Source: Orbicella franksi (Eukaryota). From it: 64,000 nucleotides of DNA. Both the position numbers and the translations under genes were made by a program. Within the stretch, counting starts at the first letter, position 1. Every line of letters begins with the position of its first letter. Below are positions 22,601-25,600 of this stretch, one piece after another. The notes beneath the pieces were generated by a model that saw nothing but the letters and a program-made list of their open reading frames with translations, was not told where the DNA came from and did not search any database. The stretch covers positions 10,478,001 to 10,542,000 of the forward strand of contig OZ116701.1 in assembly GCA_964199315.1 (NCBI GenBank), in the 5' to 3' direction.

Positions 22601-25600
22601 GATCTTGTGAGGATGCAAACAAACTATCAGTTGCCAGGTCATTTAGTGGTAAGTACTACTAAGCAAGTACTGATTAACAATTAGACCACAAGGCTGAGTT
22701 TTCTGTGGGTAAAGAAGTGGAGCCGAGTTGACTAAGAGGGTGAATAGTTGTTTAGAAGGCACTCTACCATCTGCTATCTGATTGGTTGAGCTACTTGTAC
22801 ACTTTCAGCCATTAGAGTGCATTTTCTTGTTTCGCTGCTGTTTCGAGGAGGATTTATAAATGATACTAGATAATTAATTTCCAAGAACCTAAAGACAGGA
22901 AATTGATCATCCTTCAACTTCAAAGTCGCAAAGTCTTTCAATGAACTGTTAACAGCTGCAAGTTTCAAATAACTAGTCAGTCTGCATGCATTTGTGCTGA
23001 AGCATGAACTAAATACTTCTTAATATGTAGACAAATATATGGAAGTTGTTATTTGAAAGACTATTCATTTTGCTCTGGATTACTATGAGGTGATAGTTGA
23101 TGAGGCCTTTGGCGTGAAATTGAGAGCAGATAATCTATTAATTAACAATTATTATTAATTAAAATTCCCCTGTGTAGCCAATCAGATTACTTCCATGCAC
23201 ACCTGATAGTCGGTCAGTGGGTTAAACTTATGGTAATGTCTGTCAAGTCTCATTCATGTGCAATGTGTTCGGAAAATAATGAGTGGTCGCTCAAGAAATG
23301 AATCAGCGCAAACTGGATTGTTTACATCTTATTTAACACTACAGTTACTGAATGGCTGAGAGAGCATTCACCACTAACAGAAGATGAACTACAAAAACTC
23401 TGTATTAGCATGGATGATTTCAAGGTGCTGAATAACTTGTTGTATAATTAAGTCAAATTATTCTCGCATTTCGATTGGTTTTTACTTATGATCTGTTGGA
23501 GGACAGACGTAGATGACGTCATAAGCGTTTGTTTCTGTTTCTTTATTATATAAAACAAATAGATTCCATGTTGCTGTACATTTGTTCGGTAATAAATCAT
23601 AGGAGGTGTCAAATATTTGGCAAGCTGAATCTTGAATTTCCAAATATAAACAGTCAATTTTTGGCAGGCCAAATCTTGAATTTTCAATATCTTTGGCAAA
23701 CCAAAGCTCATCTCAAGTGGTAAATTAAAGACTTTGGGAGATGGCAAGATTTTTATCTTGTTTTAGAAGCTGAGACTTTGTTACCCTTGGAAAAGAAATT
23801 TGAAACTCAGAGAAAGTGCAAAAAATCCCAGATGGCAAGATTCCAGTGTTATTTAGTTAAAATTCTCATGTTGATAAGTTAATAAAGGTGGTGAATTTTA
23901 AGCTTGGTAATGAAATGTGAAGTTGAATTAATCAACATGGCACGAGCGTAGGACAAAGAAAAATTCTGAGTCCCCGACAGGAATCGAACCCATGACCTTC
24001 TGAACACTGGGCGGGTGCTCTATCCACTGAGCTACGAGAACTCATGGAGAGCATTTAACTGAGTTCATATATGACAGGTGTCCTGCATACTGCTAGGATC
24101 AACGCTATCGAAGTCATTGTGAGTGGTGATAAGTTAATAAAGGTGGTGAAATGACCTTGCTCTCCATGAGTTCTTGTAGCTCAGTGGATAGAGCACCCAC
24201 CCGGTGTTTGGGAGGTCATGGGTTTAATTCCTGCTGGGGACTCAGAATTTTTCTTTGTCCCACGCTCGTGTCATGTTGATTAATTCACCTTCAAAATTCT
24301 CATGCTTTTGATCAACCATTTGCCCCCTTGTGTTTAAACCTACTAGCAATCCTGGAAAGGGTTTATTCCTTTGTGACAGTCGCATTATTCACAAGTTAAA
24401 GTTATTTTAATAATTGAATGAAATAAATATAGAAGCTTAGCGACACCTGTGGGTAGAGGCAATAATTTATACAGCATGCATTGTGTGCCTAAGTTCTAGA
24501 TTTGAACTATCCTTTTGCACGCGGTGCGTGCCTATGATCCTAGCTAACAGGTACAACTTGTTGGTCACTAAGACATGATATATGGAATTAAAACTACATT
24601 TTCTATTTCGTAAACGTTCTCCAGGCAGCGTTACTGATAGTTCAACCGTCAGCCAAAAGAGAAGGGTTTGCTACCATCCCTGATGTAACATGGGAAGATG
24701 TCGGAGCACTCAAGAATGTCAGGGAAGAGCTTACCATGGCTATATTGGTAAATATTCTTGTAGGAAAATACAGCGGGTCACAAAGATGTGGTATTACCAG
24801 GGTGGCCGTATTAAAGGTGTCCTTGTAATAAGAAAAGGACTGAATGAGCTTTTGTTCAGGTCCGTAGAAAGTGGCGTAATAACGAGGTGGCTGTATGAAC
24901 GGGGTGGCAGCAAGGCAGGGTTCCAATGTATAGAAGGACTGCAGCCACGATAAATCAACGTAAAATTCAAACGTTCTCTGAGTAAAATTATTGTAAAACC
25001 ACAAGCTTTAAATTGCTTAAACTACAGTCTTCAATGGCTGTAATGATAAAAGAGTTGCTAAAATTTCTAAAATAATACTCGGATAAAAAGAATACAATAG
25101 AATAAAAGTATGGAATTTTACTTAACAGAAGGCTGTATTGTCCTTGAAGCGGACAGAAGTTCTTTTGTCGTTATGATTTGTATTTTTTTGTAGTTATTTT
25201 AAAACAATGTCCAGGAGAAAAAAGGCGTTGTTCGCGTGCGACACAGACAGTCTATACCTGTTGGTTTGTATAATGACATGGTCACAGGCTCTCTTCAATA
25301 AGCTATGATGTTTTGTGTTTACCCAAATACATGTTGTAGTGGAAGGCAGGGAGGTCAAATATCTAGTGCGCTGGACTCCGGGTCATTTGTATCATTTGTA
25401 TTTGTATCTGCTAATTCTGCAGTTTTTTCCTGCTTTGCAAGCTTTTATTTTAGAGGCTGATGTTTAATAGCCCATCTTACAGCTGTGTGCAGAGTGATCA
25501 GGCCTTTGAACAGAAACGAGGCTGGGGTTGACTTTGTTGTGAGACCAACCTTGCTACTTTTCAAATTTTAATTATTCTGTTTTCATCACAAGGTGAACCC

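Follow-up and report, generated by a model that had tools for sequence, protein, structure and literature searches.

The 422-bp insertion at 23859..24304 of the window, by which we mean the whole 64,000-nt stretch of DNA analysed here, is one copy of an abundant, non-coding coral family with a 261-bp unit (family A). We consider it reasonably probable that this is a non-autonomous element which inserts as Penelope-like elements (PLEs) do and in which an internal tRNA-like cloverleaf likely stands in the place of the hammerhead, combining a Pol III promoter with a self-complementary loop. The family itself is a real and abundant variant of PLE-dependent non-autonomous element.

Layout of the insertion and of its family

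A sequence-only reading of the window had described 422 bp between 12-bp target-site duplications, holding a minus-strand monomer of about 255 bp with a 24-nt terminal redundancy, and this description held throughout: a 12-bp direct repeat bounds the insertion (Table 1), the monomer has a period of 255, i.e. 6 nt short of the 261 of the family, and the redundancy, counted from 23872, is exact over 24 nt. The inverted arms are likewise present but extend over 142 nt rather than 135 (23912-24053 vs 24158-24299, 89% identity). Two Rfam tRNA matches lie above the cut-off of 29 bits, at 38.1 bits on the minus arm (23969-24041) and 31.6 bits on the plus arm (24170-24242), each spanning 73 nt with the discriminator instead of the proposed 72, and ARAGORN at default settings called neither. 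Both of the cloverleaves announced are thus there, but they are merely the two arms of one inverted insertion. The acceptor-stem and T-loop letters quoted for them fit the minus arm, while the plus arm has decayed; the absence of U33 (both have C at position 33) and the run of five T 3' of each were correctly noted. The tail of 44 nt on one side and the conserved palindrome of the loop had been overlooked.

The host gene had been named as NVL, and the exon at 24625-24747 indeed matches NVL/Rix7 (E=3.8e-15); from frame, splice signals and RNA depth we infer that the upstream exon is 23345-23424. RNA reads over the intron, considered with regard to editing of the proposed dsRNA hairpin, come mostly from other copies of the repeat. 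We saw no empty site for the insertion, and at least one of its junctions is present in two other contig sets. Elsewhere in the window, 4903-5487 and 62189-62826 are tandem dimers (about 292 and 317 bp), the latter containing internal palindromes, and palindromic MITE-like repeats occupy 6471-6868, 55081-55495, 54139-54403 and 25659-25812, two of them 84% alike.

Table 1. Coordinates of the insertion, its host intron, the PLE copy in the window (window positions) and the related loci (L numbers)
Feature	Position	Strand	Remarks
Left target-site duplication	23859..23870	+	12 bp; 1-2 nt ambiguous with element end
Long arm	23872..24150	-	Complete unit of 255 bp (family: 261) and 24 nt of the following one; 93% to family
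Tail	23872..23915	-	44 nt, fixed end 1 to fixed end 2; on long arm only
Trailer	23916..23968	-	53 nt, cloverleaf to fixed end 1; predicted fold pairs trailer with tail across end 1
Five-T run	23959..23963	-	Directly 3' of minus-arm cloverleaf; T run at this place in all families seen
tRNA-like cloverleaf	23969..24041	-	A and B boxes; loop palindrome decayed in this copy
Leader upstream of cloverleaf	24042..24126	-	Last 35 nt common to family B, able to pair with variable loop
Terminal redundancy	24127..24150	-	24 nt from the end of the tandem unit before it; interrupted by inversion junction
Inverted arm	24151..24292	+	5'-truncated; stops at fixed end 1, without tail
Second cloverleaf	24170..24242	+	Loop positions 32-35 = CCGG
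Five-T run after second cloverleaf	24248..24252	+	
Right target-site duplication	24293..24304	+	
NVL intron containing the insertion	23425..24624	+	
Truncated hammerhead-bearing Penelope insertion	58286..58842	-	Inverted, with one-sided tail
Family B copies	L277:799-1966, L273-L302		97-100% alike
Families F and G	L369-L372, L376, L378-L381		Older relatives of B
Family D copies	L310:1415-1923, L343-L367		
Family E	L382-L387		367-bp unit, (TA)n, CTAG loop
Autonomous PLE partner of family D	L344:2034-2122, L427:1869-3131		

A 33-mer of family A has 482 exact matches in the 497-Mb genome; sequencing runs with the repeat are from coral wherever a label exists, and metagenome contigs carry the family at 70-98% identity. 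No ORF was found in its units. We assembled 70 loci, the 30 best matches and 40 from the first contigs of the exact-match list, and removed 14 as overlapping or segmental duplicates, leaving 56 insertions. Tail-to-tail inversions, in which both outer ends are 3' ends, make up 41 of the 56. In 34 of these one arm stops at end 1, 53 nt past the cloverleaf, and the other at end 2, 44 nt beyond end 1; seven have one irregular end, and none of the 41 has the same end on both arms. All 15 one-direction insertions also stop at a fixed end (nine at end 1, six at end 2). When the insertions from the exact-match list were taken alone (n=35), 24 were inverted, 18 of them with one of each end. Duplications of at least 9 nt surround 33 of the 56 insertions compared to 2 of 3080 mismatched flank pairs, and exact duplications of 9-15 nt, a few nt of which may be element microhomology, accompany 31/41 inverted and 2/15 direct insertions. 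More than 1.9 units, inverted arms counted, are spanned by 32 of the 56, and tandem head-to-tail units are present.

At the other side of the arms, the 5' ends are scattered and near uniform (n=114). A single one is found 4 nt or less from where the cloverleaf starts, and three are equally close to where it ends (expected, 3.9 at each), so that neither tRNA end shows a pile-up of junctions among the 114. Separately, ten of these 5' ends fall within four positions roughly 28 nt ahead of end 2, at a short word found in two places per unit. Family A ends at two fixed, non-repetitive points, and no LINE-type simple-repeat or A tail was found there. As a control we used an ordinary tRNA-head SINE of the same genome, which starts at the tRNA in 12/12 aligned copies; this SINE (L253-L268) is called tRNA-Ser(TGA) by ARAGORN and has at least two different 3' tails.

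These ends bear directly on the proposal that family A is an ordinary LINE-mobilised tRNA SINE, with the present copy a one-off twin-priming inversion. Such an element would carry A and B boxes in a tRNA-derived domain and have 9-15 bp duplications, and the missing PLE partner of family A (see below) would need no comment. The sequence-only reading had named a majority of copies starting at the tRNA with LINE-like tails as the pattern that would speak against its own PLE interpretation; instead, 1 of 114 arms starts at the tRNA, and the 3' ends are fixed and carry no simple repeat. Given that 41 of the 56 insertions are inverted, that the two fixed 3' ends are distributed one per arm, that units occur in tandem, and that a genuine SINE in the same genome behaves differently, the LINE-mobilised SINE is refuted for the sampled copies by the 5' ends and the inverted fixed-end layout, and as a general account it is hardly credible. 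Terminal inverted arms and tandem units also occur in elements that move at the DNA level, and we considered a MITE, a Helitron, a DIRS derivative or a dispersed satellite. Arm lengths and junctions differ in every copy, however, the ends are asymmetric, the duplications vary in length, and the end of sister family D is common to a PLE; we regard a DNA-level element as very improbable.

Two further observations concern the neighbourhood of family A copies. A locus that resembled a fusion to a PLE ORF (L026) was rejected as such, family A being inserted into a PLE ORF there. Long open frames of 418 and 429 aa adjoin copies at L022:145-1398 and L023:145-1398 (minus strand) and at L043:5914-7200 (minus strand); they presumably resemble Maverick/Polinton genes.

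Sister families and autonomous Penelope-like elements

The PLE at 58286-58842 had been put forward as having a similar inverted-tail layout, and it proved to be a real, inverted insertion. Its 509-bp minus arm is 92% like another Penelope copy, the tail is found only on the short plus arm, and the whole lies within a 16-nt direct repeat; it has no 3' sequence in common with the element at 23859..24304. Two-arm loci of autonomous PLEs in the same genome also carry the tail on one arm only, and Craig et al. 2021 describe, in the passages drawn on here, a one-sided tail of 30-40 bp in PLEs (PMC8557442). The inverted layout with a one-sided tail is that of PLEs, both among the autonomous PLEs of this genome and in those passages of PMC8557442.

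We found five further tRNA-bearing families (B, D, E, F and G), and the layout is common to those examined for it (B, D and E). Family B has a 251-bp unit and a 49-nt tail; 20 of 26 insertions are inverted, 19 of the 20 with one of each end. It shares the leader with family A, its cloverleaf is 68% identical to that of A, and because its copies are 97-100% alike it has probably been active more recently. Families F and G are 81-86% like B, and the layout was seen in part; in G, the variable loop and the leader word pairing with it have changed together. Families D (387 bp) and E (367 bp) form tandem and inverted copies located in (TA)n. A pattern covering the loop and T arm has 2283 matches in the genome.

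Family D provides the direct connection to a PLE. Five family D loci adjoin a PLE that matches D at the 3' end with 75% identity over about 94 nt and a score of 96 compared to a shuffled maximum of 39; the tails of the pair measure 97 and about 99 nt, and both target (TA)n. The ORF of this PLE holds a cysteine linker and a GIY-YIG domain, and we label it Neptune-type from the linker and the (TA)n target as given in passages of PMC8557442, a label that does not derive from a tree. Upstream of the block common to both, a minimal hammerhead lies in the PLE, with its cut site 38 nt away, whereas D has a cloverleaf with its 3' end 31 nt away; in these sequences the predicted cloverleaf of family D occupies the hammerhead position of its PLE partner. 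A hammerhead seen beside family D at L345 was set aside because it belongs to the neighbouring PLE; at this locus a family D copy and the truncated 3' end of a different hammerhead PLE are joined without a gap, forming a natural chimera. Adjoining a PLE at L339:1985-3397 (minus strand) is an intronless 471-aa stretch matching Pfam GT4-conflict (E=2.9e-78).

For family A, the best partner score was 28 against a shuffled maximum of 35 among PLE loci from GIY-YIG and RT searches and BLAST of the unit, and the 51 hammerhead clusters contained no partner of A, B, E, F or G; this PLE sample is incomplete, the Penelope-clade search being dominated by one family and Naiad and Hydra queries having been left out. 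With the common form subtracted, the first of two family A tail patterns had 0 matches and the second 25, all of them family A, and two loose-end patterns considered in reads as a possible partner each traced to a single old copy. Between the D and E cloverleaves and those of A, B, F and G, identity is 56-65%, the level of unrelated tRNAs, and so the partner of D cannot be transferred to A by homology; we read the link between D and A as one of common design rather than demonstrated descent. The suggestion of a non-autonomous, PLE-mobilised family therefore stands as regards the PLE-type insertion and the shared end of sister family D, but the partner of family A itself was not found. We nevertheless hold it very likely that family A is mobilised by a PLE, with its reverse transcriptase and GIY-YIG endonuclease.

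The cloverleaf and its palindromic loop

Among five host tRNA types sampled, tRNA-Thr is closest to the A cloverleaf (73-74% vs 59-62%). At the level of sequence, every family retains the A and B boxes together with the T run, and the cloverleaf likely serves as a Pol III promoter. The acceptor stem is paired 7/7 in A, B, F, D and E although the letters differ, as opposed to 4/7 in the copy of the control SINE that we scored. Lineage A' carries a 2-nt acceptor bulge (17/29 read the same), and G has an eighth acceptor pair. Two marks of a functional tRNA are absent in A and B, where position 33 is C and 31-39 is unpaired, leaving no closed 5-bp anticodon stem.

At positions 32-35 the loop has CCGG in A, A', B, D, F and G. 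The tetramer is CTAG in 7/7 E copies counted and CATG in five metagenome copies of A that form one tree group (support 91/68, rough). CATG and CTAG are each two positions from CCGG and are still self-complementary. Of 106 distinct G000 copies, 80 have CCGG, 11 CCAG, 7 CTGG and 8 another sequence, and the 26 non-CCGG states are scattered, mostly as expected from CpG decay. No amplified lineage with a non-palindromic loop was present in the sample. The predicted self-pairing palindrome is conserved in every amplified lineage, and the U33 missing from the present copy is its visible sign. The CTAG of family E is the loop of tRNA-Thr(AGT), and it could be either this ancestral loop or a product of double CpG decay; as an idea, CCGG could have arisen from CTAG through inosine-34 copied as G plus a compensating change. 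A comparable feature is found in the hammerheads themselves, stem III starting with a 4-6 nt palindrome in 22 of the 29 largest hammerhead clusters, and PLE hammerheads are described in passages of PMC4209133 and PMC6765202 as having a palindromic helix III and reportedly act as dimers with low activity.

No hammerhead core was found on either strand of the A, B, D and E units, and no Rfam ribozyme matched the units; an HDV-like leader fold considered by eye was dropped, Rfam giving no ribozyme. With relaxed settings, ARAGORN made 360 tRNA-Thr(GGT) calls in the loci examined, and coral tRNA-Thr(GGT) calls can thus be copies of these repeats.

Several observations count against assigning the cloverleaf and loop a role of their own. 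Neither the whole unit nor the domain taken alone is predicted to adopt the cloverleaf as its minimum-energy fold, the leader pairing with the variable loop instead; the acceptor is bulged in A' and has the eighth pair in G; the CTAG loop could be ancestral or decayed, as noted; and the CATG and CTAG duplexes are weak (-3.2 and -4.8 kcal/mol), with the CATG group of five copies having modest support. At L010 all three units have CTGG, so a non-palindromic template has retroposed, although self-pairing through G-U would still be possible. This exception suits a PLE-mobilised element whose tRNA domain is a Pol III promoter and nothing else, its stems and palindrome being inherited or incidental, as do the boxes and T run retained in all families, the Pol III promoter reported for tandem schistosome units (PMC6765202, in part) and the non-autonomous PLE partners reported in a clade mostly without hammerheads (passages of PMC8557442). 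Three palindromic states without any amplified non-palindromic lineage in the sample, and an acceptor that stays paired with changed letters where that of the control SINE is broken, make such a promoter-only domain quite unlikely in our judgement. We lean slightly towards selection for loop-loop pairing.

A proposed cycle and its relation to known systems

In the cycle that we propose for the PLE-mobilised element, Pol III would start at one cloverleaf and sometimes pass the T run into the next unit, yielding a read-through RNA with a cloverleaf at each end. This read-through has to be assumed, since termination at the T run directly 3' of the cloverleaf would be expected to keep Pol III from reaching the fixed ends. 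Pairing between palindromic loops would hold two unit RNAs together, and the PLE enzyme, primed at either fixed end, would move between copies to give tandem arrays; passage of the same enzyme between paired copies would add the second, opposite arm and hence the inversions. Either a circle or efficient template transfer would account for the absent 5' pile-up.

One cut per unit by a host nuclease is also conceivable, and we view cutting by RNase Z or P as a possible, though rather doubtful, part of the cycle. Taken as the full account, along the lines of the processing suggested by the sequence-only reading, RNase Z, or RNase P alone, would cut tandem transcripts of a PLE-mobilised element once per unit, like the hammerhead, to give a circular monomer and rolling reverse transcription. 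Acceptor and T stems that stay paired despite sequence change, which a promoter does not need, agree with this, as do the position of the cloverleaf 3' end where the hammerhead cut lies in the partner of D, the lack of a 5'-end pile-up expected for a circular template, and the retrozyme circles reported in a coral (PMC7229834, in part). However, cuts at both ends would destroy the template, the acceptor differs in length among lineages, and the palindromic loop is left unexplained. The products of RNase P and Z have 3'-OH and 5'-phosphate ends, unlike the ends that RtcB joins. Poly(A) RNA reads span the unit junction, a signal that tandem genomic copies would give equally, and read ends do not pile up: no common starts or ends occurred among 16, 18, 549 and 422 reads from four poly(A)-selected runs, a library type blind to Pol III products and circles. 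As a complete explanation we consider host-nuclease processing unlikely; it is compatible with the cycle proposed above and may be part of it.

Passages of PMC8557442 treat two matters as unresolved, namely what the PLE hammerhead does and how the tandem, inverted and tailed insertions of PLEs arise. Tentatively, and at somewhat less than even chance, corals may harbour undescribed PLE parasites in which a cloverleaf replaced the hammerhead, perhaps twice (A, B, F, G; D, E), with a palindromic loop for RNA-RNA pairing kept. If so, the essential task of the PLE hammerhead, which cleaves weakly, would be to bring two RNA copies together, a role that would explain the tandem and inverted insertions of PLEs and for which the coral units would be a ribozyme-free tool. 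The swap of hammerhead and cloverleaf before the same 3' end, in D and its Neptune-type partner, separates cleavage from promoter and pairing and makes the question testable with RNA of 261-387 nt, family D and its PLE being the best experimental pair. The notion of a SINE would likewise widen to tRNA-bearing elements driven by PLEs.

In the open full-text literature, Repbase Reports, Dfam and supplements aside, we found no description of a tRNA-bearing, ribozyme-free PLE partner, and such elements are possibly listed under SINE2, tRNA or unknown repeats. By analogy, bivalves may have elements of this kind: the flat oyster has an excess of tRNA-Thr(AGU) calls (282) and high Penelope content, and the hard clam has 791 tRNA-Thr (passages of PMC9679248). 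With tRNA SINEs (PMC8969392, in part) the coral units share tRNA-derived Pol III boxes, short length, non-autonomy and target duplications, but their tRNA is internal, copies do not start there, LINE-type tails are missing and insertion follows the PLE pattern. They resemble the autonomous EN+ PLEs (Penelope/Poseidon, Neptune), as well as non-autonomous Chlamys elements, MRC1 among them, in 5' truncation, partial tandems, an inverted arm and a one-sided tail, and MRC1-type elements have 3' similarity to an autonomous partner as shown here for family D; they differ from PLEs in lacking an ORF, and the cited passages report no tRNA domain (PMC8557442). In their way of working the coral units are like the animal non-LTR retrozymes, non-coding tandem units of 200-400 nt that occur in corals and are proposed non-autonomous PLE partners (Cervera and de la Pena 2020, PMC7229834, and Li et al., bioRxiv 10.64898/2026.07.22.740005, both in part), which are defined by a type I hammerhead where the coral units have a tRNA cloverleaf instead. 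Finally, the schistosome Sm-alpha and Sj-alpha, as partly summarised in PMC6765202, are tandem units with a Pol III promoter transcribing the next unit; they retain a cleaving hammerhead, whereas the coral units have none but conserve a whole cloverleaf and a palindromic loop.
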